This document shows, piece by piece, positions 4,205 to 62,677 of a DNA stretch of 64,000 bases (positions within the stretch are counted from its first letter, which is position 1; each line of letters starts with the position of its first letter). Location of the stretch: NCBI RefSeq assembly GCF_000027125.1, contig NC_017626.1. One strand, given 5' to 3'. The position numbers were made by a program, and so were the translations under genes. Below the pieces are notes generated by a model. The model was not told where the DNA came from and made no database searches. It saw only the letters and a list, made by a program, of their open reading frames with translations. The stretch comes from Escherichia coli 042 (GTDB taxonomy: Bacteria > Pseudomonadota > Gammaproteobacteria > Enterobacterales > Enterobacteriaceae).

Positions 4205-4315
4205 TGCTCTATAAACTCCGTACATCACTCAATGCAAGGAACCAGGCTACCGGCTGGATGTACGACCGTGTTTACGGAGCGCGATACGCCCCGGCCTGAT
4301 TCTGAATTCTTTTTA

Positions 4316-5932: not shown

Positions 5933-6736
5933 ATGCATCCGATGCTGAACATCGCCGTGCGCGCAGCGCGCAAGGCGGGTAATTTAATTGCCAAAAACTA
6001 TGAAACCCCGGACGCTGTAGAAGCGAGCCAGAAAGGCAGTAACGACTTCGTGACCAACGTAGATAAAGCTGCCGAAGCGGTGATTATCGACACGATTCGT
6101 AAATCTTACCCACAGCACACCATCATCACCGAAGAAAGCGGTGAACTTGAAGGTACTGATCAGGATGTTCAATGGGTTATCGATCCACTGGATGGCACTA
6201 CCAACTTTATCAAACGTCTGCCGCACTTCGCGGTATCTATCGCCGTTCGTATCAAAGGCCGCACTGAAGTTGCTGTGGTTTACGATCCTATGCGTAACGA
6301 ACTGTTCACCGCCACTCGCGGTCAGGGCGCACAGCTGAACGGCTACCGTCTGCGCGGCAGCACCGCTCGCGATCTCGACGGTACTATTCTGGCGACCGGC
6401 TTCCCGTTCAAAGCAAAACAGTACGCCACCACCTACATCAACATCGTCGGCAAACTGTTCAACGAATGCGCTGACTTCCGTCGTACCGGTTCTGCGGCGC
6501 TGGATCTGGCTTACGTTGCTGCGGGTCGCGTTGACGGTTTCTTTGAAATCGGTCTGCGTCCGTGGGATTTCGCCGCAGGCGAGCTGCTGGTTCGTGAAGC
6601 GGGCGGCATCGTCAGCGACTTCACCGGTGGTCATAACTACATGCTGACCGGTAACATCGTTGCTGGTAACCCGCGCGTTGTTAAAGCCATGCTGGCGAAC
6701 ATGCGTGACGAGTTAAGCGACGCCCTGAAGCGTTAA
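5933..6736 (+). CDS. suhB: Inositol monophosphatase SuhB
   Basis: 267-aa ORF MHPMLNIAVRAARKAGN with WVIDPLDGTTNF IMPase motif. Confidence 0.95.
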   Translation: MHPMLNIAVRAARKAGNLIAKNYETPDAVEASQKGSNDFVTNVDKAAEAVIIDTIRKSYPQHTIITEESGELEGTDQDVQWVIDPLDGTTNFIKRLPHFAVSIAVRIKGRTEVAVVYDPMRNELFTATRGQGAQLNGYRLRGSTARDLDGTILATGFPFKAKQYATTYINIVGKLFNECADFRRTGSAALDLAYVAAGRVDGFFEIGLRPWDFAAGELLVREAGGIVSDFTGGHNYMLTGNIVAGNPRVVKAMLANMRDELSDALKR

Positions 6737-18316: not shown

Positions 18317-19315
18317 TTAGCGTTTCGCTTTACTGCTTCGCTGAGTCAGCAAGATATTCGCCAGCACCGCCACCACGATGATGACGCCGCGCACCACCTG
18401 CTGGAAAAAGGAGTTAATCCCGAGCAGCACCAGACCGTTACCGATTAGCGTAATCACCAACACACCAAGCAATGTACCGAACAGGGAACCGCGACCACCG
18501 GAAAGCGCCGTACCGCCAACCACGACCGCGGCGATGACGTCAAACTCCAGACCGTTTGCGGCACCTGCGTTACCGGAACCGAGGCGCGCCGCCAACAAAA
18601 TGCCGGTCACCGCTGCTAATAATCCCGAAAGGGTAAAAATAAGAATGCGTACCCGACGAACGTTAATACCGCATAACTGCGCCGCCGTGGCATTACCGCC
18701 AACGGCAAAAACCGAGCGCCCGAAGGCGGTTTTGCGGCTAATGAACACAAACAGCGCAAACAGCACCATCATGATCAGCGCGGATACCGGCACACCGAGA
18801 AATTGTCCGCCCAGCCAGTCCAGCACTTCGTTTTCGTCAATCGGCACTGGCAAGGCGTTCGTCATAAATAGCCCCATTCCGCGCAGGGCGCTCCATAAAC
18901 CCAGCGTGGCAACAAAACTTGGCACGTTAAACACGCCGCGCAGCACCCCGGCGAGCGTTCCCATCAGCGCGCCTAACAGCAACACCAGCAGACAAGCAAT
19001 CGCCAGCGGAACCTCAAATTGCAGCAAAAATGCCAGGCACACCGAGACAAAAGCCACCATCGGCCCAACGCTGACATCAATTTCCCCGGAGATAATAATC
19101 AGCGTCATCGCCCAGGCGGCGATCCCAATGGTGGCGGCATCGCGCAGCACGTTCATCTGGTTATTCAATGAGATAAAGCCAGGCGCGTTCAGAGAGAAGA
19201 CCAGATAAAGAATGGCGATCACCACCAGCAAACCGATCTCATTAATATGGCGACTGACAAATTGTTTGAGCGAGACGCTCTTGCCCTGCGGCAATGGTAA
19301 TGACGAAGCAGACAT
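18317..19315 (-). CDS. yphD: Sugar ABC transporter permease YphD
   Basis: 332 aa, multi-pass hydrophobic, ribose/xylose-type permease family. Confidence 0.88.
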   Translation of the reverse strand: MSASSLPLPQGKSVSLKQFVSRHINEIGLLVVIAILYLVFSLNAPGFISLNNQMNVLRDAATIGIAAWAMTLIIISGEIDVSVGPMVAFVSVCLAFLLQFEVPLAIACLLVLLLGALMGTLAGVLRGVFNVPSFVATLGLWSALRGMGLFMTNALPVPIDENEVLDWLGGQFLGVPVSALIMMVLFALFVFISRKTAFGRSVFAVGGNATAAQLCGINVRRVRILIFTLSGLLAAVTGILLAARLGSGNAGAANGLEFDVIAAVVVGGTALSGGRGSLFGTLLGVLVITLIGNGLVLLGINSFFQQVVRGVIIVVAVLANILLTQRSSKAKR

Positions 19316-25352: not shown

Positions 25353-26546
25353 ATGAGAGCCTGCATTAACAATCAACAGATTCGCCACCATAACAAATGC
25401 GTGATTCTGGAACTGCTGTACCGGCAAAAGCGCGCCAATAAATCAACGCTGGCCCGGCTGGCGCAAATTTCGATTCCGGCGGTCAGTAATATTTTGCAGG
25501 AACTGGAAAGCGAAAAACGGGTGGTGAATATCGACGATGAAAGCCAGACGCGCGGGCATAGTAGCGGTACATGGCTGATTGCGCCGGAAGGTGACTGGAC
25601 GCTGTGCCTGAACGTGACGCCCACCAGTATTGAGTGTCAGGTTGCTAATGCTTGTTTAAGTCCGAAAGGTGAATTTGAGTATTTACAGATTGATGCACCG
25701 ACGCCGCAGGCGCTGCTGTCCGAAATCGAAAAATGCTGGCATCGCCACCGTAAATTGTGGCCGGACCGTACCATCAACCTGGCGCTGGCAATCCACGGTC
25801 AGGTTGATCCGGTGACTGGCGTGTCGCAAACCATGCCGCAAGCGCCGTGGACAACGCCGGTTGAGGTAAAATATCTGCTGGAAGAGAAGCTCGGCATTCG
25901 GGTGATGGTCGATAATGACTGCGTGATGCTGGCGCTGGCGGAGAAATGGCAAAATAATTCGCAGGGCCGGGATTTCTGCGTGATCAACGTTGATTACGGC
26001 ATTGGCTCGTCGTTCGTGATTAACGAGCAAATTTATCGCGGCAGTTTGTATGGTAGCGGACAAATTGGTCACACCATCGTTAATCCGGATGGCGTCGTCT
26101 GCGACTGCGGACGTTATGGCTGCCTGGAAACCGTCGCCTCGTTAAGCGCGTTAAAAAAACAGGCGCGGGTATGGCTAAAATCACAACCGGTTAATACTCA
26201 GCTTGATCCTGAAAAACTGACTACCGCGCAGTTAATCGCTGCCTGGCAGAGTGGAGAACCGTGGATCACCAGTTGGGTTGATCGCTCTGCCAACGCCATT
26301 GGTTTGAGTCTGTATAACTTCCTCAACATCCTCAATATTAATCAGATTTGGTTGTACGGTCGCAGTTGTGCCTTTGGTGAGCACTGGCTTAATACCATTA
26401 TTCGCCAGACGGGATTTAACCCGTTCGACCGCGATGAAGGACCGAGCGTGAAAGCAACGCAAATTGGCTTTGGGCTATTAAGCCGCGCACAACAGGTGCT
26501 GGGGATTGGCTATTTGTATGTTGAGGCACAGTTACGACAGATTTGA
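25353..26546 (+). CDS. yphH: ROK (NagC/XylR)-family transcriptional regulator YphH
   Basis: 397 aa with N-terminal HTH and a ROK sugar-kinase-like domain carrying the CDCGRYGCLE zinc motif. Confidence 0.88.
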   Translation: MRACINNQQIRHHNKCVILELLYRQKRANKSTLARLAQISIPAVSNILQELESEKRVVNIDDESQTRGHSSGTWLIAPEGDWTLCLNVTPTSIECQVANACLSPKGEFEYLQIDAPTPQALLSEIEKCWHRHRKLWPDRTINLALAIHGQVDPVTGVSQTMPQAPWTTPVEVKYLLEEKLGIRVMVDNDCVMLALAEKWQNNSQGRDFCVINVDYGIGSSFVINEQIYRGSLYGSGQIGHTIVNPDGVVCDCGRYGCLETVASLSALKKQARVWLKSQPVNTQLDPEKLTTAQLIAAWQSGEPWITSWVDRSANAIGLSLYNFLNILNINQIWLYGRSCAFGEHWLNTIIRQTGFNPFDRDEGPSVKATQIGFGLLSRAQQVLGIGYLYVEAQLRQI

Positions 26547-26606
26547 TGGCGCGATAACGTAGAAAGGCTTCCCGAAGGAAGCCTTGATGATCACAAACCT
26601 AAGATT

Positions 26607-26710
26607 GCCTGATGCACTACGCTTATCAGGCCTACACGGATATTGCAATATATTGAATTTGCAAAGTTTTGTAGGCCGGATTAGGCGTTCATGCCGCTTC
26701 CGGCATGAAC
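26607..26710. repeat. BIME: two REP palindromic units with linker
   Basis: GCCTGATGCACTACGCTTATCAGGCCTAC ... ATATTGAATTTGCA ... GTAGGCCGGATTAGGCGTTCATGCCGCTTCCGGCATGAAC; the same architecture as the BIME at 56791. Confidence 0.8.
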
Positions 26711-26743
26711 AACGAGCACATTGTCAGCAAATCACCGTTTCGC

Positions 26744-27997
26744 TTATGCGTAAACCGGGTAACGTGCGCAGATGTCGAGAACTTTACCTTTGATGCGCTC
26801 AATAACCGCTTCATCATTGATGCTGTCCAGCACGTCACACATCCAGCCAGCCAGTTCTTTCGCTTCGGCTTCTTTAAAGCCACGACGGGTAATCGCCGGA
26901 GTACCCACGCGAATACCGGAGGTCACAAACGGGCTCTTCGGATCGTTCGGTACGCTGTTTTTGTTAACGGTGATGTTAGCACGGCCCAGAGCGGCGTCCG
27001 CTTCTTTACCGGTCAGGTTTTTATCAACCAGATCAACCAGGAACAGGTGGTTATCAGTGCCGCCGGAAACCACTTTGTAGCCGCGTTCCAGGAACACTTC
27101 TACCATCGCTTTAGCGTTTTTAGCGACCTGCTGCTGGTAAGTTTTGAACTCAGGCTCCATCGCTTCTTTCAGAGCAACCGCTTTACCGGCGATTACGTGC
27201 ATCAACGGACCGCCCTGACCACCAGGGAAAACGGCAGAGTTCAGTTTTTTGTACAGCTCTTCGCTACCACCTTTCGCCAGGATCAGGCCGCCGCGCGGAC
27301 CCGCCAGGGTTTTGTGAGTGGTGGTAGTAACAACGTGAGCATGAGGAACCGGGTTCGGGTAGACGCCAGCTGCAACCAGGCCCGCAACGTGCGCCATATC
27401 AACGAACAGGTAAGCACCGATGCTGTCAGCGATTTCACGCATTTTCGCCCAGTCAACCACACCGGAATATGCAGAGAAGCCACCGATAATCATTTTCGGT
27501 TTGTGTTCTTTGGCTTGTTTTTCCAGATCGGCGTAGTCGATATGACCGCTAGCATCGATACCGTAAGGAACGATGTTGTACAGTTTACCGGAGAAATTAA
27601 CCGGAGAACCGTGAGTCAGGTGGCCGCCATGCGCCAGGTTCATACCCAGAACGGTATCACCTGGTTCCAGCAGCGCGGTGTACACCGCAAAGTTAGCCTG
27701 GGAGCCGGAGTGCGGCTGGACGTTAGCGTAGTCAGCACCGAACAGTTCTTTCGCACGATCGATCGCCAGTTGTTCAACGATATCAACATACTCGCAACCG
27801 CCGTAGTAGCGTTTGCCCGGATAACCTTCAGCATATTTGTTGGTCAGCTGAGAACCCTGCGCCTGCATTACGCGCGGGCTGGTGTAGTTTTCGGAGGCGA
27901 TCAGTTCGATGTGCTCTTCCTGACGTACTTTTTCCTGCTCCATAGCCTGCCACAGTTCGGCATCATAATCGGCAATGTTCATTTCACGCTTTAACAT
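26744..27997 (-). CDS. glyA: Serine hydroxymethyltransferase GlyA
   Basis: ORF 26744..28003; the recognised GlyA N-terminus [16 protein letters not shown] starts 2 codons in (417 aa); PLP-lysine motif TTTTHKTL present. Confidence 0.95.
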
Positions 27998-28276
27998 CCG
28001 CATCTCCTGACTCAGCTAACAATAAAATTTTTGGCCTTTATAGGCGGTCCTGTTGGACAACGGCGAACAGTATAACCGAATCATTGTGTGATAACAGGTC
28101 TTGACAAAGGAATTTACGCAAACGATTACCTTCAGGCTACGCAAGGCTTTGGAGAATAAAGAGCTTGCAACCGGAAACGGATTTCTTTTCAGGTTTGTGA
28201 TGCAAATTTTTCACTTCATCACATTCTTTCTGAAAAACACCAAAGAACCATTTACATTGCAGGGCTATTTTTTATA

Positions 28277-28324: not shown

Positions 28325-29515
28325 ATGCTTGACGCTCAAACCATCGCTACAGTAAAAGCCACCATCCCTTTACTGGTGGAAACAGGGCCAAAGTTAACCG
28401 CCCATTTCTACGACCGTATGTTTACTCATAACCCAGAACTCAAAGAAATTTTTAACATGAGTAACCAGCGTAATGGCGATCAACGTGAAGCCCTGTTTAA
28501 CGCCATTGCCGCCTACGCCAGTAATATTGAAAACCTGCCTGCGCTGCTGCCAGCGGTAGAAAAAATCGCGCAGAAGCACACCAGTTTCCAGATCAAACCG
28601 GAACAGTACAACATCGTCGGCGAACACCTGTTGGCGACGCTGGACGAAATGTTCAGCCCGGGCCAGGAAGTGCTGGACGCGTGGGGTAAAGCTTATGGCG
28701 TACTGGCTAATGTATTTATCAATCGCGAGGCGGAAATCTATAACGAAAACGCCAGCAAAGCCGGTGGCTGGGAAGGTACTCGCGATTTCCGCATTGTGGC
28801 TAAAACACCGCGCAGCGCACTTATCACCAGCTTCGAACTGGAGCCGGTCGACGGTGGCGCAGTGGCAGAATACCATCCGGGGCAATATCTCGGCGTCTGG
28901 CTGAAGCCGGAAGGTTTCCCGCATCAGGAAATTCGTCAGTATTCTTTGACTCGCAAACCGGATGGCAAAGGCTATCGTATTGCGGTGAAACGCGAAGAGG
29001 GTGGGCAGGTATCCAACTGGCTGCACAATCACGCCAATGTTGGCGATGTCGTGAAACTGGTTGCTCCGGCAGGTGATTTCTTTATGGCTGTCGCAGATGA
29101 CACACCAGTGACGTTAATCTCTGCCGGTGTCGGCCAGACGCCAATGCTGGCAATGCTCGACACGCTGGCAAAAGCTGGCCACACAGCACAAGTGAACTGG
29201 TTCCATGCGGCAGAAAATGGCGATGTTCACGCCTTTGCCGATGAAGTTAAGGAACTGGGGCAGTCACTGCCGCGCTTTACCGCGCACACCTGGTATCGTC
29301 AGCCAAGCGAAGCCGATCGCGCTAAAGGTCAGTTTGATAGCGAAGGTCTGATGGATTTGAGCAAACTGGAAGGTGCGTTCAGCGATCCGACAATGCAGTT
29401 CTATCTCTGCGGCCCGGTTGGCTTCATGCAGTTTGCCGCGAAACAGTTAGTGGATCTGGGCGTGAAGCAGGAAAACATTCATTACGAATGCTTTGGCCCG
29501 CATAAGGTGCTGTGA
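28325..29515 (+). CDS. hmp: Flavohaemoglobin / nitric oxide dioxygenase Hmp
   Basis: ORF 28304..29515; the recognised Hmp N-terminus [17 protein letters not shown] is internal (396 aa); globin domain plus FAD/NAD reductase domain. Confidence 0.95.
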
Positions 29516-33646: not shown

Positions 33647-33830
33647 AACAAAGCCGGGAATTACCCGGCTTTGTTATGGAATAAGGCGGTGCCTAACTCG
33701 ACGTTTCGCCCGATGGTTGATATAGCTACGCTGATATCAGAAGTTGGACGGCAGGCACCTTGTTGTGCGTCATTCGAATTTTATGTAGCACGTCCCGAAG
33801 GGGCTGACATAAGTCGGTGAATGAGCCACT
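33647..33830 (-). ncRNA. glmY: Small RNA GlmY
   Basis: Reverse strand reads AGTGGCTCATTCACCGACTTATGTCAGCCCCTTCGGGACGTGCTACATAAAATTCGAATGACGCACAACAAGGTGCC... and ends in the terminator AAAGCCGGGTAATTCCCGGCTTTGTTGT, matching recalled GlmY sequence; length 184 nt; no ORF. Confidence 0.85.
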
Positions 33831-34060: not shown

Positions 34061-34109
34061 CAAAAAAGCTCCCGAAGTTGGGAGCTTATAATAGCGGTTG
34101 GTGCTTAAT

Positions 34110-34139
34110 GCCGGATGCGGCGTGAATGCCTCATCCGGG
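34110..34139. repeat. REP palindromic unit downstream of purL
   Basis: GCCGGATGCGGCGTGAATGCCTCATCCGGG. Confidence 0.75.
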
Positions 34140-34163
34140 CTGCAAAACCAATGGGCTGACGAC

Positions 34164-37100
34164 TTACCCCAACTGCTTACGCGCATTGCGGAAAATGCGC
34201 ATCCATGGGCCATCCTCGCCCCAGTTTTCCGGATGCCAGGAGTTGCTGACAGTACGGAAAACACGTTCCGGGTGCGGCATCATAATGGTGACTCGACCAC
34301 TTTCAGTCGTGACTGCCGTAATACCATTCGGAGAACCGTTCGGGTTAGCCGGGTAGGTTTCAGTGACTTTGCCGAAGTTATCGACATAGCGCAGTGCCAC
34401 CAGCCCTTTGCTTTCCAGTGCCGCCAGATGCGCCGCATCACGCACTTCCACGCGCCCTTCACCATGAGATACAGCAATCGGCATTTGCGAGCCCACCATC
34501 CCCTGCAACAGCAGAGACGGGCTTTGGGTTACTTCAACCAGGCTGAAACGCGCTTCAAAGCGATCGGAGGTATTGCGCACAAAACGTGGCCACAACTCAC
34601 TACCTGGGATCAGTTCGCGCAGATTAGACATCATCTGGCAACCGTTACATACCCCCAGCGCCAGCGTTTGCGGACGGTGGAAGAAGGTTGCAAACTCATC
34701 GCGTACACGGTCATTGAACAGGATAGACTTCGCCCAACCTTCACCGGCACCCAGCACATCACCGTAGGAGAAACCACCGCACGCGACCAGGGCGTGGAAA
34801 TCCTCCAGGCCCGTGCGTCCAGCCAGCAGGTCACTCATATGCACATCGATTGCATCGAAGCCTGCACGGTGGAAAGCAGCCGCCATTTCAACATGCGAGT
34901 TCACGCCCTGCTCACGCAGTACGGCAACTTTCGGACGTGCGCCAGTAGCAATATACGGTGCTGCCACATCTTCGTTGATATCGAACGACAGTTTCACATT
35001 CAGGCCCGGATCGGCGTCGTTGGATTTCGCCTGATGTTCCTGATCGGCACATTCAGGGTTGTCACGCAGGCGCTGCATCTGCCAGGTAGTTTCTGCCCAC
35101 CAGACACGCAACGTGGTGCGGCTTTCGCTGAATACAGTCTGCCCGTTGGCGGTAATCACAAAACGGTCACCGGAAACCGCCTGGCCAACATAATGGACGC
35201 AATCAGCAAGGCCATGCAGTGCCAGTACCGCTTCAACTGCTTTACGGTCAGCGGCTCGAACCTGAATCACCGCACCCAGTTCTTCGTTAAACAACGCCGC
35301 CAGGCGATCGTCACCCAGAGTGGCGATATCCGCGTCAATGCCGCAATGACCAGCAAAGGCCATTTCCGCCAGCGTTACCAGCAGGCCGCCATCAGAGCGG
35401 TCGTGGTACGCGAGCAGCTTACGCTGTGCTACCAGCGCCTGAACCGCGTCATAGAAACCTTTCAGTTGCGCGACGTCGCGTACATCTGCCGGTTTGTCGC
35501 CAAGCTGACGATAAACCTGCGCCAGCGCCGTTGCGCCCAGCGCGTTATTGCCTTTGCCCAGATCAATCAGCAGTAATGCGTTATCTTCGGTAGAAAGCTG
35601 CGGCGTGATGGTGTGACGCACATCTTCCACACGGGCAAATGCAGAAATCACCAGCGACAGCGGCGACGTCATTTCGCGCTCTTCGTTACCTTCCTGCCAG
35701 CGGGTTTTCATCGACATAGAGTCTTTACCCACCGGGATCGTCAGGCCCAGCGCCGGACAAAGTTCTTCGCCCACAGCTTTAACGGCTTCATACAGGCCCG
35801 CATCTTCACCAGGGTGGCCTGCCGCCGCCATCCAGTTGGCGGAAAGTTTAATGCGTTTGATATCGCCAATCTGTGTTGCGGCAATATTGGTTAACGCTTC
35901 ACCGACCGCCAGACGGGCAGAGGCGGCGAAATCCAGCAGCGCAACCGGCGCACGCTCGCCAATCGCCATCGCTTCACCATAGTAGCTGTCAAGGCTGGCG
36001 GTAGTGACCGCGCAGTTAGCGACCGGCACCTGCCACGGACCCACCATCTGATCGCGCGCTACCATGCCGGTTACGCTGCGGTCACCAATGGTCACCAGGA
36101 AAGTTTTCTCCGCCACGGTCGGCAGGTGCAGCACGCGTTTCACCGCGTCAGCAATGGTAATCCCTTCACGAACCAGCGCATCACCCTTCGCTTTCAGCGT
36201 TTGTACTTCGCGGGTCATCTTCGGCGTTTTACCAAGCAGTACGTCCAGCGGCAGATCGATCGGCTGATTATCAAAATGACGATCGTGCAAAGAAAGATGC
36301 AGTTCTTCGGTCGCTTCACCAATCACCGCGTATGGCGCGCGCTCACGCTTACACAGTTCGTCAAACAGCGGTAACTGATCGGCAGCAACCGCCAGCACGT
36401 AGCGTTCCTGGGATTCGTTACACCAGATTTCCAGCGGGCTCATGCCCGGTTCGTCGCTCAGGATATCGCGCAGTTCGAATTTACCGCCGCGCCCGCCGTC
36501 GCTCACCAGTTCCGGCATGGCGTTAGAAAGACCGCCTGCGCCAACGTCGTGGATAAACAGGATTGGGTTGGCATCACCAAGCTGCCAGCAACGGTCGATC
36601 ACTTCCTGGCAGCGACGCTCCATCTCCGGGTTGTCGCGCTGTACGGAAGCGAAGTCGAGGTCGGCATCAGACTGACCAGACGCCATGGAAGACGCCGCGC
36701 CGCCGCCAAGACCGATGTTCATTGCCGGGCCGCCGAGAACGACCAGCTTCGCACCAACGTTGATCTCGCCTTTTTGTACGTGATCGGCACGAATATTGCC
36801 GATCCCGCCCGCCAGCATGATCGGTTTGTGATAACCGCGCAGCTCTTCGCCATTGTGGCTGTTCACTTTTTCTTCATAAGTACGGAAGTAGCCGTTCAGT
36901 GCCGGACGACCAAATTCGTTGTTAAATGCCGCGCCGCCCAGCGGGCCTTCGGTCATGATGTCCAGCGCGGTGACAATGCGCTCAGGCTTACCGAAATCTT
37001 CTTCCCACGGCTGTTCGAAGCCTGGAATTCGCAGGTTGGAAACGGAGAAACCTACCAGACCAGCTTTCGGCTTTGCGCCACGCCCGGTGGCACCTTCATC

Positions 37101-38051
37101 GCGGATTTCACCGCCGGAACCGGTCGCCGCGCCCGGCCACGGAGAAATCGCCGTCGGGTGGTTGTGAGTTTCGACTTTCATCAGAATATGCGCCGGTTCC
37201 TGATGGAAATCGTAGCGGCCCGTTTCGTGGTCAGCAAAGTAGCGGCCCACTTCAGACCCTTCCATGACGGCGGCGTTATCTTTATAAGCAGAGAGAACGT
37301 GATCCGGCGTAGTTTCGAAGGTATTTTTGATCATCTTGAACAGCGATTTCGGCTGCTGTTCACCGTCGATAATCCAGTCGGCGTTAAAAATTTTGTGGCG
37401 GCAGTGCTCAGAGTTCGCCTGAGCGAACATATACAGCTCGATGTCGTTCGGGTTACGACCAAGCTTTGTGAAAGCATCCTGCAGATAGTCGATTTCATCT
37501 TCCGCCAGTGCCAGGCCAAGACGCAGGTTAGCGTCGATTAGCGCCTGACGGCCCTGTCCCAGCAAATCAACGCTGGTGACCGGAGTCGGTTGATGGTGTG
37601 CAAACAGCTGCTCTGCATCATCTAAAGCAAAAAAGACCGTTTCCATCATGCGGTCGTGCAGTACAGCGGTAACTTGCTGCCATTGTTCATTGGTCAGCGT
37701 ACCGGCTTCTATATAGTAAGCCACGCCGCGCTCAAGACGGTTTACCTGTTGCAGCCCGCAGTTATGGGCAATATCGGTCGCTTTCGAAGACCAGGGAGAG
37801 ATGGTGCCAGGACGCGGGGTCACCAGCAGGAGTTTGCCTTGCGGGGCGTGGCTGGCGAGTGCCGGGCCATATTTCAGCAGGCGTTCAAGTTGTGCGTGCT
37901 CATCATCGTTTAACGGCGCATTGAGGTCAGCAAAATGGACATACTCGGCGTAAATAGTGTGAACCGGGAGCCTGGCAGCCTGAAAACGTGCCAGCAGTTT
38001 GTTGATTCGGAATGCCGACAATGCAGGCGAACCACGCAGAATTTCCATCAT
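34164..38051 (-). CDS. purL: Phosphoribosylformylglycinamidine synthase PurL (large single-chain form)
   Basis: ORF 34164..38159; the recognised PurL N-terminus [23 protein letters not shown] is internal (1295 aa); C-terminal glutamine amidotransferase domain with GVCNGCQ. Confidence 0.95.
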
Positions 38052-42948: not shown

Positions 42949-43065
42949 TTCGTAAAGGCTCGAGTTTTTATGCTAAAGATTACAAGTTGCTTGTAAAAGA
43001 TAACCGCCCTGATCCATAATCGCTCTTGTTGAGGGTGCGTGCTGCACAAAATTAAAGTTAAAAAG

Positions 43066-43105
43066 TAAAACCCCCGTTCCTTACCAGTTCGGGGGTTTTA
43101 CTTTA
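43066..43105. terminator. Bidirectional rho-independent terminator downstream of acpS
   Basis: AAAACCCCCGTTCCTTACCAGTTCGGGGGTTTT, a GC-rich stem flanked by A-tract and T-tract on both sides, lies 20 bp past the acpS stop. Confidence 0.7.
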
Positions 43106-43124: not shown

Positions 43125-43505
43125 TTAACTTTCAATAATTACCGTGGCACAAGCATAGTGGCGTTCATCTGCCAGCGTTACATGCATATTTACAACGCCG
43201 AGCTTTTCCGCCAGTTTTAATGCCTCGCCCCACAGTCGCAGCCGTGGCTTACCAAGCTCATCGTTAAATACTTCAAACTGATTAAACGCCAGACCATTGC
43301 GGATCCCGGTGCCAAACGCTTTTGCTGCGGCTTCTTTTACGGCAAAGCGTTTCGCCAGAAAACGCACCGGCTGGTGGTGCGTTTTCCAGATTGCCCATTC
43401 GTTATCGTTTAATACGCGGCGTGCCAGGCGCTCACCGGATCGGGCGATCACCGCTTCAATGCGAGCGATCTCCACAATATCCGTACCTAAACCTAATATT
43501 GCCAT
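43125..43505 (-). CDS. acpS: Holo-[acyl-carrier-protein] synthase
   Basis: 126-aa [23 protein letters not shown]; start overlaps the pdxJ stop (TAATGG). Confidence 0.95.
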
Positions 43506-44236
43506 TAGCCACGCGCTTCCAGCATCAAACGCTTCATTTCTGCCACCGCATCTTTCAGTCCGGTCATCACTGCACGACCAATAATGGCATGACCGATATT
43601 CAGTTCATGCATCTCAGGGAGGGCGGCAATGGCTTTCACGTTGTGATAGGTCAGACCGTGTCCGGCGTTAACTTTCAGACCGAGACTTGCGGCAAAGGTC
43701 GCGGCTTTGGCGATACGCGCCAGCTCTTGCGCCTGTTCGGCGTCAGTTTTGGCATCAGCATAGCAACCGGTGTGGATCTCGATAAACGGTGCGCCAACCT
43801 CTGCCGAAGCTTTGATCTGCTCTTCATCGGCGTCGATAAACAGAGAAACCTGGATCCCGGCCTCCGCCAGACGTTTGCAGGCATCGCGCATTTTTTCACG
43901 CTGTCCAGCGACGTCCAGGCCGCCTTCGGTTGTTACTTCCTGACGCTTTTCCGGTACCAGGCAGCAAAAATGTGGCTTCGTCTCAACGGCGATCGCCAGC
44001 ATCTCTTCGGTCACCGCCATCTCCAGATTCATGCGGGTATCCAGCGTCTGACGCAGGATGCGCACATCGCGGTCAGTAATGTGGCGGCGATCTTCACGTA
44101 AATGCACGGTAATGCCGTCTGCTCCCGCCTGCTCGGCAATAAACGCCGCCTGCACTGGATCCGGGTAAGCAGTACCGCGTGCGTTACGCAGCGTTGCAAT
44201 ATGGTCAATGTTGACGCCTAACAGTAATTCAGCCAT
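43505..44236 (-). CDS. pdxJ: Pyridoxine 5'-phosphate synthase PdxJ
   Basis: ORF 43505..44251; the recognised PdxJ N-terminus [21 protein letters not shown] is internal (243 aa). Confidence 0.93.
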
Positions 44237-44987: not shown

Positions 44988-46600
<1,613 letters not shown>

Positions 46601-46842
46601 TCAGCACACGAAACAGACCTGATATACATGGCTCTGCTAACTGCTTCGCTGCAGTTTCAGTTTACCGGTATATGGGGACCAACGCTGTTTCGTGTGCCGT
46701 GGCAACCTGGAGGTGCCAACCTTAAACTTCGGGGGAATATTCTATACACAACGACGGGGGATGTCGTTAGCCACGGGAGATTTATCTCATAAATAATTCA
46801 CGTTGTCGCCATAACGGCGACAACGTGAACGAAGATGGGCTA

Positions 46843-47832: not shown

Positions 47833-49632
<1,800 letters not shown>

Positions 49633-49829
49633 AAAGTATGATTATTGTGCCTTAATGCCCGGTTAACCAGGCTTTTAGAAGTCGCTGTTCTGAGCTTAAC
49701 GTCTGTATTAATAGAAACGCCGCATTCTACACTACAACATTGAGGCGAGGAAATGTTCATACCGTATGGATTGTGGTATCTGGAAACGTCCTCGCATTTG
49801 TTATGCAAAATGCAACAAAGCCAGTGAAA

Positions 49830-50309
49830 TCACTGGCTCGCGTCTTCCGAAGATGTTTCAAATCGCACAAGGCCAGGCGGCAATGCCACGCTTAAGATGA
49901 TCGGTTGCCATTCAGACCGGGCAGCAAACTTTCGAGAGCCGCCACGTGCAATCAGGAATCCACCAACGCCACCGAGAATCGCACCGCATAATGCTGCAAT
50001 ATCTGAAGCAAAGAGTAGCTGAAATAGTGAAGCGATGAGGAATAGTCCCACCAACGGCGACATATAAACCAGTAATGCGGAGCTAAGCAGGCTGCCTTCG
50101 GCGATCCCCAATTCCACTTTTTGCCCCGGCACTAACGGTTCATCACAGGGTACGACAATGGTATGCGTGGTTTGCGGGCCAAGTTTATTCAACACGCGGC
50201 TACCGCAACCGGCGCGTGAAGCGCAGCTGCTGCATGAGGCTTTAACATCACAACTAACCAGCGCCTGCCCGTTTTCCCAGGAGATGACGGTAGCCCACTC
50301 TTTGATCAT
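49830..50309 (-). CDS. rseC: Sigma-E regulatory protein RseC
   Basis: 159 aa; operon position after rseB; hydrophobic C-terminal half. Confidence 0.9.
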   Translation of the reverse strand: MIKEWATVISWENGQALVSCDVKASCSSCASRAGCGSRVLNKLGPQTTHTIVVPCDEPLVPGQKVELGIAEGSLLSSALLVYMSPLVGLFLIASLFQLLFASDIAALCGAILGGVGGFLIARGGSRKFAARSEWQPIILSVALPPGLVRFETSSEDASQ

Positions 50310-51262
50310 TGCGCTGCCCCGAACTTAATATTCTCGGCAATGCGTTTCGCCGTTTGCGGCGGCAGTTCACCGACAATGGTGATTTCGGCGTTATCACGTA
50401 CGCTTGTACTGACGGTTCTGCGTCCGGTGCGCAACATCTGATCGGTGCTCGATGGCGTAGCGCGGTTAACGTTTACCGAAAAGCTGAATAATCCGTCGGA
50501 ATAGAGACGTGATTCGATAGGCATGTTGTCCATCGTCGGTAGCGGACGTCGACTACTGGAAACTTCGCTAAAACCCTGTGGCAACCAGGTTGGCGTCCAG
50601 CTGAATTTAGCTTTTTCACCTACAGGAACAGAAAGCAACGGCGGCAAATTTGCCTTCGCCAACGTCTGCATACTGCTGCTGATATCCTGATTGACATTAA
50701 AAGCAATCACGCGAAATTGTTCCAGCGTTTCACCATCGCGATCAAGGAGATCAACCCGCATCGGTAATTTCGATTCGGTGTCCATCCACACGATGTAGCT
50801 GTAGCGTGTACCATCTCGGGCAACCACACGAATGACTTCGCAAAGACGATCAGCAATACGCGTGCGCCCGACGGAGATAAAGTCGTAGTAAGGAGAAAGG
50901 CGTTTGAAATCGGTATAGATGAGCGATGGTAGAGAATCAACAATGTAATCGCCATTAAGCGTGAACGGTTCAAGTCCCGGTTCAAAATAGCTGATTTCAT
51001 TGCCGCGCTGTACCACTTCCCGGCGCGGGCCATCCATTTGCAACAATTGTGCAAGAGGACGGTTATCGAGGCGTGCATGTCGATAACGCAGAGACTCAAC
51101 ACCCTGTTTATTGATGCTGATGAATGACAGCTCGTAATTCAGTGACTGACTGGCCAGGTTCATCTGCTGTAATAACGCCCCGGACGCGGGAGTGGCCGAG
51201 GCGTTAGCAGAGAATAACAGGCTACCTGTCACTAATGACATGGCAAACCAAAGTTGCTTCAT
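50306..51262 (-). CDS. rseB: Sigma-E regulatory protein RseB (periplasmic)
   Basis: 318 aa with signal peptide MKQLWFAMSLVTGSLLFSANASA; stop overlaps the rseC start. Confidence 0.93.
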   Translation of the reverse strand: MKQLWFAMSLVTGSLLFSANASATPASGALLQQMNLASQSLNYELSFISINKQGVESLRYRHARLDNRPLAQLLQMDGPRREVVQRGNEISYFEPGLEPFTLNGDYIVDSLPSLIYTDFKRLSPYYDFISVGRTRIADRLCEVIRVVARDGTRYSYIVWMDTESKLPMRVDLLDRDGETLEQFRVIAFNVNQDISSSMQTLAKANLPPLLSVPVGEKAKFSWTPTWLPQGFSEVSSSRRPLPTMDNMPIESRLYSDGLFSFSVNVNRATPSSTDQMLRTGRRTVSTSVRDNAEITIVGELPPQTAKRIAENIKFGAAQ

Positions 51263-52918: not shown

Positions 52919-55272
<2,354 letters not shown>

Positions 55273-55403
55273 GAAAATAAAACCTTGCAGGAAAAACGGC
55301 GATAGCACCGGGTGAGAACAATACCCGAGAAGCGATATCCATACAAACAGATGAAGATTGCAGCCGTAACGTCTATAATCAGCGCCCCACACAGAGGTAG
55401 AAC

Positions 55404-56738
55404 ATGACTGTAACGACTTTTTCCGAACTTGAACTCGACGAAAGCCTGCTGGAAGCACTCCAGGATAAAGGTTTCACTCGCCCGACCGCCATTCAGGCTG
55501 CCGCCATTCCGCCTGCGCTCGATGGCCGTGATGTACTCGGTTCTGCGCCGACAGGCACCGGTAAAACGGCGGCGTATCTGCTGCCAGCGTTGCAGCACCT
55601 GCTCGATTTCCCACGTAAGAAATCCGGTCCGCCGCGTATTTTGATCCTCACCCCAACTCGCGAGCTGGCGATGCAGGTGGCCGATCATGCCCGCGAACTG
55701 GCGAAACATACGCATCTGGATATCGCCACCATCACCGGCGGCGTAGCCTATATGAACCACGCGGAAGTGTTCAGCGAAAATCAGGACATCGTGGTCGCCA
55801 CGACCGGACGTTTGCTGCAATACATAAAAGAAGAGAACTTCGATTGCCGCGCGGTTGAAACTCTTATCCTCGACGAAGCAGACCGTATGCTGGATATGGG
55901 CTTCGCTCAGGATATCGAACATATTGCTGGCGAAACGCGCTGGCGTAAACAGACCCTGCTCTTTTCCGCAACGCTGGAAGGCGATGCGATTCAGGACTTT
56001 GCCGAGCGTCTGCTGGAAGATCCGGTGGAAGTTTCTGCGAATCCCTCCACCCGTGAGCGCAAAAAGATCCATCAGTGGTATTACCGCGCCGATGATCTTG
56101 AGCATAAAACCGCGTTGCTGGTGCACCTGTTAAAACAGCCTGAAGCGACTCGCTCAATTGTGTTTGTGCGTAAGCGTGAGCGTGTGCATGAGCTGGCAAA
56201 CTGGCTGCGCGAGGCGGGCATCAACAACTGCTATCTCGAAGGTGAGATGGTACAAGGCAAGCGTAACGAAGCGATCAAGCGTTTGACCGAAGGCCGCGTA
56301 AACGTACTGGTTGCCACCGATGTTGCTGCACGCGGTATCGACATTCCTGATGTCAGCCACGTCTTTAACTTCGATATGCCGCGTAGTGGTGATACTTATT
56401 TGCACCGTATCGGACGTACCGCGCGCGCCGGTCGTAAAGGCACCGCAATTTCGCTAGTGGAAGCCCATGACCATCTGCTGCTAGGCAAAGTTGGCCGTTA
56501 TATTGAAGAGCCAATTAAAGCTCGCGTAATTGATGAGTTACGCCCGAAAACGCGTGCACCAAGCGAGAAGCAGACCGGCAAGCCATCGAAGAAAGTGCTG
56601 GCTAAACGCGCCGAGAAGAAAAAAGCTAAAGAGAAAGAGAAGCCGCGAGTGAAAAAACGCCATCGCGATACCAAAAATATTGGTAAGCGCCGTAAACCAA
56701 GCGGAACGGGCGTGCCACCGCAAACGACAGAAGAGTAA
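55404..56738 (+). CDS. srmB: ATP-dependent DEAD-box RNA helicase SrmB
   Basis: 444 aa with Q-motif, Walker [13 protein letters not shown] box, SAT and HRIGRTAR motifs; basic C-terminal tail. Confidence 0.95.
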
Positions 56739-56790: not shown

Positions 56791-56874
56791 GCCTGATGCG
56801 CTACGCTTATCAGGCCTACATGGCTCATGCAATATATTGAATTTGCACGATCTTGTAGGCCGGATAAGGCGTTC
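56791..56874. repeat. BIME whose second REP unit is split by the IS insertion
   Basis: GCCTGATGCGCTACGCTTATCAGGCCTACA ... ATATTGAATTTGCA ... TGTAGGCCGGATAAGGCGTTC; the remaining half of the REP (ACGCCGCATCCGGCATGAAC) resumes at 58311 after the IS. Confidence 0.8.
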
Positions 56875-61433: not shown

Positions 61434-62471
61434 TCAGGCTTTATTCTGACGCCACCATTCACCAAGTAAAACGCCGGTTGCGACAGAGATATTTAGCCCG
61501 GCAACGTTGCCAGTACCATCAATCTTCACGCGCAAATCGTTCGGATCGCGTGCGGCATCCGGTAACCCTTCATATTCCTGACCCAACACCAGCACCATTT
61601 TCGCTGGTAGACTGGTTTTGAACAGCGGTTTACCCTGCTCGCTGGAAGTGGTCACCACGGTGTAACCCGCCTGTCGGAAATCATCCAGCACGTTAACAAT
61701 GTTGTCGCCAGTAATCGGCTGAACGTGCTCTGCGCCGCCTTCTGCGGTACGGATAGCCGCACCCGATTCCAGCAGTGCCGCATCCTGCACCACAACGCCT
61801 TTCACGCCGAAGTGCGCACAGCTGCGCATCATGCCCCCCAGGTTATGCGGGTTAGATTCGTTTTCCAGGGCCAGTACACAATCCTGCGCGCCTGCCTGGC
61901 TTACCCACTGCTGCACGGTTGTACCGTTACGCTTTTTGATCAGGAAGCAAACGCCGCCGTGATGTTCCGTGCCTGACGCTTTTGTCAGTTCCGCTTCATC
62001 CACCACATGGTACGCTTTGCGGTTTGCCGCCATCCAGCGCAAGGCTTCTTTAAAACGCGGCGTTACACTCTGGATAAACCAGGCGCGAACAATCGCTTCC
62101 GGACGGCTCTGGAACAGTGCCTGACATGCATTTTCGCCGTAGACGCGGGTTTCTTCCGCACGCTGACGACGCAAAACTTCCGGATCAATAAAACTTTTAC
62201 CACTTATGCCACCGTGATCGGCCTTTTCCGGCGTCTCATCACCCGGCGCGCGGGAAACTGTACGCCAGGGCGACTCTTCCCACTTGCGGTCACGGGGCTG
62301 ACTTTGTTTGTCATCGCGGGCGGGGCGACGGCCACCGTCAGCACGAGATTTTCCTGGACGCCCGCCCCCTTTCCCGGTACGCGGGTTGTGGGTACGTTTA
62401 TCAGAATCATCATCACTGCGGACATACATCACTTTGACCTTGCCGCTTTTACCTTTCATTTCATCGTTCAT
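61434..62471 (-). CDS. yfiF: SpoU/TrmH-family RNA methyltransferase YfiF
   Basis: ORF 61434..62546; likely start [18 protein letters not shown] (345 aa); basic Arg/Gly/Lys-rich N-terminal tail and SPOUT C-terminal domain. Confidence 0.85.
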
Positions 62472-62677
62472 GCTTTTCTCCACCAGCGCTGCGCGAAGCG
62501 CGCAGATTACCCGAAGTGCGCGCGGTTCGCCATGATTTCGTACCAAAGCCTGCGACTATCATACCTATTGAATAAAACAGATTGTTGTCTGGAACAATGT
62601 CCCCGATAATATGTAACATATTAGAAACATACCGGCGTCGTTGCCGATAAGTCTCCTTACTCATCCCGAGGTTAGTT

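Follow-up and report, generated by a model that had tools for sequence, protein, structure and literature searches.

We find that the long open reading frame on the plus strand opposite glyA, in the 64,000-nucleotide stretch of Escherichia coli 042 DNA analysed here (the window), is almost certainly a non-coding shadow of the codon bias of glyA and, on present evidence, not a gene. The initial annotation had read it as a codon-bias shadow ORF rather than a gene, and this view is supported by the register of the two frames, by the codon bias of glyA, by dN/dS ratios (omega) above 1 in the antisense frame and by the breakage of the frame in most orthologues. In the explanation that we favour, strong codon bias leads glyA to use almost solely preferred codons, so that TTA, CTA and TCA are missing from its interior along with most other rare codons; with no stop-making codon inside the gene, the in-register antisense frame stays open until the TTA at Leu2 terminates it, and past the glyA TAA it runs into a REP/BIME repeat that happens to hold an ATG. 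We infer that translation of the frame, if any, is too slight to be of use.

The features of the locus, with positions counted from the first letter of the window, are these:

26672..26674, plus strand: in-frame TAG, the upstream bound of the open frame (direct sequence check)
26705..27994, plus strand: shadow ORF, ATG to TAA, 429 codons, in exact codon register with glyA (ORF listing, frame check)
27992..27994, plus strand: TAA that ends the shadow ORF, complementary to glyA codon 2 (Leu, TTA) (direct sequence check)
26744..27997, minus strand: glyA, serine hydroxymethyltransferase, 417 aa, the sole RefSeq feature at the locus (RefSeq annotation; Pfam SHMT, E=1.2e-186)

Both the ORF listing and a direct check give a frame of 1290 nt and 429 aa running from ATG to TAA with zero internal stops, and the coordinates, length and uninterrupted character first ascribed to it are correct; counted between stops, it begins at 26675 and extends over 439 codons. 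Strain DCM272-43-68 carries an identical 429-aa ORF. The "near-perfect register" with glyA that had also been remarked on is literally true, as the codon boundaries of the shadow ORF and glyA coincide (offset 0) and antisense and glyA codons pair off one to one as reverse complements. Given this offset, an antisense stop is possible only opposite a glyA TTA, CTA or TCA codon, and glyA holds a single one of these stop-making codons, the TTA of Leu2, with CTA and TCA both at zero. The complement of that TTA is the stop of the ORF, and this is why the shadow ORF ends two codons from the glyA start; among 78 glyA genes, 44 have TTA as their second codon and 11 have CTA. At the other end, the glyA TAA reads as Leu (TTA) on the plus strand and the frame continues for 39 nt beyond the gene to its ATG. 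Three things together make the ORF coextensive with glyA: the gene has no stop-making codon in its interior, its second codon is a rare one for Leu, and an ATG happens to lie just past its end. The 1.5 kb around the shadow ORF is present in 5425 of 5426 complete E. coli genomes and matches strain BEC1-S17-ESBL-09 at 100% identity.

Two further observations concern glyA itself. An in-frame ATG lies two codons upstream of the RefSeq start (27998..28003, minus strand) and gives a 419-aa ORF (MRMLKREM...). A FliA-binding site inside glyA has been reported (PMC4183435; bioRxiv 10.1101/188474), and its ChIP-seq motif AAAGCGTGAAATGAACATTGCCGATTAT (PMC4183435) falls on the glyA sense strand at codons 2-11, about 27965..27992 (minus strand). 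The authors later judged the conservation of this motif to be due only to the coding sequence, and the site has no relevance to the antisense ORF.

The absence of stop-making codons is one part of a general avoidance of rare codons in glyA. Its effective number of codons (ENC), 34.7, is the second lowest among the 52 mapped genes of the window; CTG accounts for 28 of its 31 Leu codons, and its 18 Ser codons are TCT, TCC or AGC only. Also at zero are CTT, AGT, TCG, ACA, ACG, GGA, GGG, ATA, CCC, CGA, CGG, AGA and AGG, 13 rare codons that make no difference to the antisense frame. Among the 52 genes, those with a higher ENC carry stop-making codons at greater density (Spearman 0.68, p=4e-8). This gene set consists of RefSeq genes of NZ_AP022298.1 placed on the window by their ends, with 52 of 58 mapped and trxC, ung, srmB, nadB, rseC and hcaE left unmapped. 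The window and NZ_AP022298.1 1361023..1425022 are 100% identical around glyA and not collinear over the full 64 kb, a direct overlay giving 5699 mismatches and implying indels elsewhere than at glyA.

How surprising the open frame is depends on what it is set against. When glyA codons are redrawn from the average usage of the window, an open run of at least 415 codons has P=0.001. Fitted to the other 51 genes, a binomial regression on ENC puts the expected number of stop-making codons in glyA at 3.1, with P(<=1)=0.17, and the probability of finding no stop-making codon among the 48 other Leu and Ser codons is 0.04-0.05 (0.05 when usage is pooled over the other eleven genes whose ENC is <41). 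The frame is far longer than expected of a random sequence and unremarkable given the codon bias of glyA, although even after codon-bias matching a fully stop-free frame is only moderately likely, at P about 0.04-0.17. This range is probably an underestimate, since the reference genes that the window offers fall short of the bias of truly highly expressed genes; with the Sharp and Li codon table of highly expressed E. coli genes, the probability of an open frame would be roughly 0.25.

The ATG of the ORF falls outside glyA, in the gap between yphH and glyA, where two features overlap:

about 26581..26733, no strand assigned: dispersed repeat of REP/BIME type between yphH and glyA, ~135 bp by alignment (alignment, genome searches)
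26687..26710, plus strand: REP hairpin with a 10-bp stem, GUUCAUGCCG / CGGCAUGAAC (fold of 26660..26745, MFE -26.7 kcal/mol)

The repeat insertion supplies both the ATG of the shadow ORF and the in-frame stop upstream of it. Segment 26586..26733 resembles the REP consensus and we take it to be a REP/BIME element; copies of the repeat lie in at least 40 places per genome, and alignment of strains with and without it reveals a clean insertion. When presence is defined as coverage of at least 80% of the junction query, the repeat occupies the yphH/glyA site in 1939 of 5426 E. coli genomes (36%). The AUG (26705..26707) is base-paired within the 3' arm of the predicted REP hairpin, and the 20 nt upstream of it (GCGTTCATGCCGCTTCCGGC) hold no GGAG/AGGA-type motif, in agreement with the earlier remark that no Shine-Dalgarno sequence precedes the first ATG. 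A consensus scan of the plus strand over 26300..28250 returns no sigma-70-like promoter. Strains that do not carry the insertion retain a frame that is stop-free over glyA (419 codons), in which the first start, at +303, gives 315 aa and is GTG in seven of eight such strains and ATG in one, while the first ATG usually gives 217 aa. What would mark a functional antisense gene at this end, a conserved start codon with a ribosome-binding site, is not found here. The insertion also takes the place of a T-run that follows a hairpin at 26563..26585 in strains without the repeat, and might in this way alter the transcript termination of yphH and glyA; a terminator consensus scan of the yphH/glyA gap calls none, with or without the insertion.

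One scan of species-representative genomes returned 80 loci, and 78 glyA genes, this window's included, were analysed. Antisense stops number 0-34 per gene and are strongly anticorrelated with GC3 (Spearman -0.90, p=3e-29); 44 of the 78 have at least 5 stops, 35 at least 10, and 14 a fully open antisense frame. The open frames belong to six Enterobacteriaceae (this window, L006, L011, L014, L024 and L029), one unclassified gammaproteobacterial MAG (L053) and seven high-GC3 genes, mostly from Pseudomonas and close relatives. In E. albertii, GlyA is 99.8% identical, the antisense product is 84.9% identical, and the frame is interrupted by a CTA.

A test for purifying selection in the antisense frame across glyA alignments had been proposed in the initial annotation, and on these orthologues we detect none. 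Nei-Gojobori dN/dS for glyA is 0.004-0.15 in the 20 comparisons with a computable dS, and for the antisense frame it is 1.2-9.6 in all 21 comparisons. Such values are expected, as the "nonsynonymous" sites of the antisense frame are the synonymous sites of glyA and carry no constraint of their own. Polymorphism within the species has the same form: 61 sites segregate among 12 E. coli strains, and 58 of these are third positions of glyA codons. The variation falls in 59 codons; in glyA, 57 of them vary synonymously and two change GlyA, while in the antisense frame 58 vary nonsynonymously. The frame is stop-free across glyA in all 12 strains, an observation that does not speak for or against weak selection for openness. 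Purifying selection and conservation of the ORF, which a functional antisense gene should display, are thus both lacking.

The predicted antisense product is rich in Val (11.7%), Phe (11.7%) and Arg (9.6%), as the first description of it had said, and this composition mirrors the preferred codons of glyA, with Phe arising from AAA and GAA, Val from AAC, TAC, CAC and GAC, Arg from GCG and CCG, Thr from GGT and CGT, and Gln from CTG. We trained a codon model on the remaining genes of the window; for the plus-strand ORF it scores "in-register shadow" 122 bits above "coding", and for glyA it puts "coding" ahead by 148 bits. A Pfam search of the product returns no family (best match E=0.43), in keeping with the earlier statement that it has no recognisable domain, and the exact 429-aa sequence is not found among about 15 billion predicted proteins. 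There are 21 database relatives, all unnamed or "hypothetical", down to 33% identity at E=1e-17. All of them are other glyA genes translated in antisense, typically to 315 aa; they share a C-terminus set by Leu2 and vary at their N-termini. The 315-aa version is occasionally emitted by gene callers (176 member sequences). The similarity among the relatives is inherited from the conservation of GlyA, and we rejected homology as evidence of coding. All five marks of a shadow ORF are found at this locus: register with the mother gene, general avoidance of rare codons, a length in line with codon usage, openness that tracks GC3, and no constraint on the product.

Frames of this kind are general within the window. 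Among the eight antisense ORFs of at least 200 aa opposite mapped genes, seven are at offset 0, opposite suhB, glyA, hmpA, purL (twice), pdxJ and yfiF, and a further one lies opposite srmB:

34098..35576, plus strand: in-register shadow ORF opposite purL, 492 aa, TTG start (frame check)
36549..37541, plus strand: in-register shadow ORF opposite purL, 330 aa, GTG start (frame check)
18378..19208, plus strand: antisense ORF opposite yphD, 276 aa, ATG start, offset 1 (frame check)
5984..6634, minus strand: in-register shadow ORF opposite suhB
28394..29032, minus strand: in-register shadow ORF opposite hmpA
43322..44101, plus strand: in-register shadow ORF opposite pdxJ
62007..62609, plus strand: in-register shadow ORF opposite yfiF
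55191..56126, minus strand: in-register shadow ORF opposite srmB (by coordinate arithmetic)

The frames opposite suhB, hmpA, pdxJ, yfiF and srmB encode 200-311 aa, and purL has 6 stop-making codons where 26 are expected from the codon usage of the window. The initial annotation had described the frames opposite purL and yphD as similar to that of glyA; all of them exist as given and the purL pair is in register, but the yphD frame is at offset 1 and has a different origin. At offset 1, a stop requires a sense TAN or CAN codon after a codon that ends in a pyrimidine, and the 332 residues of YphD include one Tyr, one His and nine Gln. Under synonymous resampling an equally long run arises with P=0.22, and it is the amino-acid composition of YphD, with its few Tyr, His and Gln residues, that opens this frame, likewise a shadow, and not the avoidance of rare codons.

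Structured RNAs were located in the window by Rfam, each at the gathering score:

49514..50345, plus strand: AsrC, a curated antisense RNA of rseC
46516..46730, minus strand: rncO
33683..33830, minus strand: GlmY
4206..4315, minus strand: iscRS stability element
43028..43104, plus strand: OhsC
56812..56854, minus strand: ES036

At the glyA locus, Rfam gives no family match on either strand.

We weighed the shadow reading against four others. That the frame is a real, translated overlapping gene, encoding a 429-aa or 315-aa protein in the manner of pop opposite ompA or the long genes of P. aeruginosa, is suggested by its great length, by its freedom from stops over glyA in 12 of 12 E. coli strains, by the 315-aa versions that gene callers now and then emit, and by published arguments that too few antisense overlapping genes have been annotated in E. 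coli. We nevertheless regard this as highly improbable: antisense dN/dS exceeds 1 in every comparison, nearly every polymorphic codon alters the product, and the frame is broken in E. albertii and most Enterobacterales, with a number of stops that tracks GC3. Its start codon, moreover, sits on an accessory repeat carried by 36% of strains, buried in a hairpin and with neither a Shine-Dalgarno sequence nor, in the consensus scan, a promoter-like site; Pfam finds no domain; and the ORF is missing from the EHEC candidate tables searched, a weak negative. It is equally hard to credit that the frame is a very young proto-gene of REP-positive strains, not yet selected and translated at a low level through occasional read-through from yphH, although such a proto-gene would be consistent with omega above 1 for the very reason that it is not yet under selection.

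Transcription of the plus strand as a non-coding antisense RNA that modulates glyA, for instance by read-through from yphH, with the open frame incidental, strikes us as very unlikely. yphH (25353..26546, plus strand) does point into glyA, displacement by the repeat of the T-run after the hairpin at 26563..26585 makes read-through conceivable, and AsrC opposite rseC offers a precedent within the window; but the consensus scan gives no promoter-like site on the plus strand inside or just before glyA, the locus has no Rfam family, REP hairpins stand between yphH and glyA, and such an RNA, even if real, would still not make the ORF a gene. Least credible, and close to negligible, is the idea that antisense stops are selected against in glyA as such, quite apart from any translational preference among codons. 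Of the CTN and TCN codons of glyA, 0 of 40 end in A, compared with 10 of 174 in six control four-fold families, but at the control rate 0 of 40 has P of about 0.09 and is not significant; over the 78 orthologues the corresponding frequencies are 0.175 and 0.154 (Wilcoxon p=0.61), and rare codons irrelevant to the antisense frame are missing to the same degree. Nothing specifically removes antisense stops from glyA, and the codon-bias shadow remains the reading that we adopt.

The case of glyA is a worked negative: where a frame lies antisense to a codon-biased gene and in register with it, neither the length of an ORF nor its coextension with the gene is evidence of coding. A shadow can be separated from a true overlapping gene by checks on the frame offset, on TTA, CTA and TCA relative to other rare codons, on openness relative to GC3 across orthologues, on antisense dN/dS and on the pattern of polymorphism within the species, and these checks could be automated on the other long antisense frames of the window. 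Were the frame translated after all, it and glyA would rank among the longest overlapping pairs of genes in E. coli, and a proto-gene, if that is what it were, would be material from which a gene could arise de novo by overprinting. A repeat-donated ATG completes the 429-codon ORF in about a third of E. coli strains.

Several overlapping genes with published support share features with this ORF. In E. coli O157:H7, pop opposite ompA (PMC7103648), laoB (PMC5810103) and three further genes (PMC9927249) are likewise long ORFs antisense to a well-expressed, conserved gene, and these papers describe strand-specific RNA-seq, ribosome profiling, mapping of promoters or transcription starts, and phenotypes in their support (PMC7103648; PMC5810103; PMC9927249). 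For the glyA shadow, unlike them, we find no promoter-like site by consensus scan, no Shine-Dalgarno sequence and no conserved start. The supplements of an EHEC overlapping-gene survey, whose tables name mother genes by product, e.g., "porin OmpA", have no entry for glyA or serine hydroxymethyltransferase (Zehentner et al., bioRxiv 10.1101/2020.11.18.388249), nor does the ribosome-profiling supplement of Stringer et al. have one for glyA. P. aeruginosa olg1 and olg2 (957 and 1536 nt), for which both translation and purifying selection have been reported (Kreitmeier et al. 2022, PMC8850804), are also exceptionally long antisense ORFs inside annotated genes and, by that account, were at first dismissed as shadow ORFs; in contrast to them, the glyA antisense frame has omega of 1.2-9.6 and is lost in close relatives.

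The segment that supplies the start codon, and not the ORF itself, is comparable to the REP/BIME elements of E. coli, as 26586..26733 is extragenic and palindromic, recurs in at least 40 places per genome and varies among strains. [quoted passage not shown] 2012, PMC3454372) and, in E. coli, accounted for by the codon usage of very highly expressed genes (Silke 1997, cited in PMC3454372), with Mir et al. (PMC3454372) and Ardern et al. arguing that some long antisense ORFs exceed the expectation from codon usage and may be functional. The glyA ORF occupies the same frame as these (Merino 1994; Silke 1997; PMC3454372), has the same cause, spans nearly the whole of its mother gene and displays the same tie to strongly codon-biased genes, here in E. 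coli itself (PMC3454372). We see no essential difference between them, the local peculiarity being an ATG contributed by a strain-variable REP/BIME insertion; the phenomenon of frame -1 ORFs arising from codon bias is already known, and the glyA frame is fully explained by known causes.
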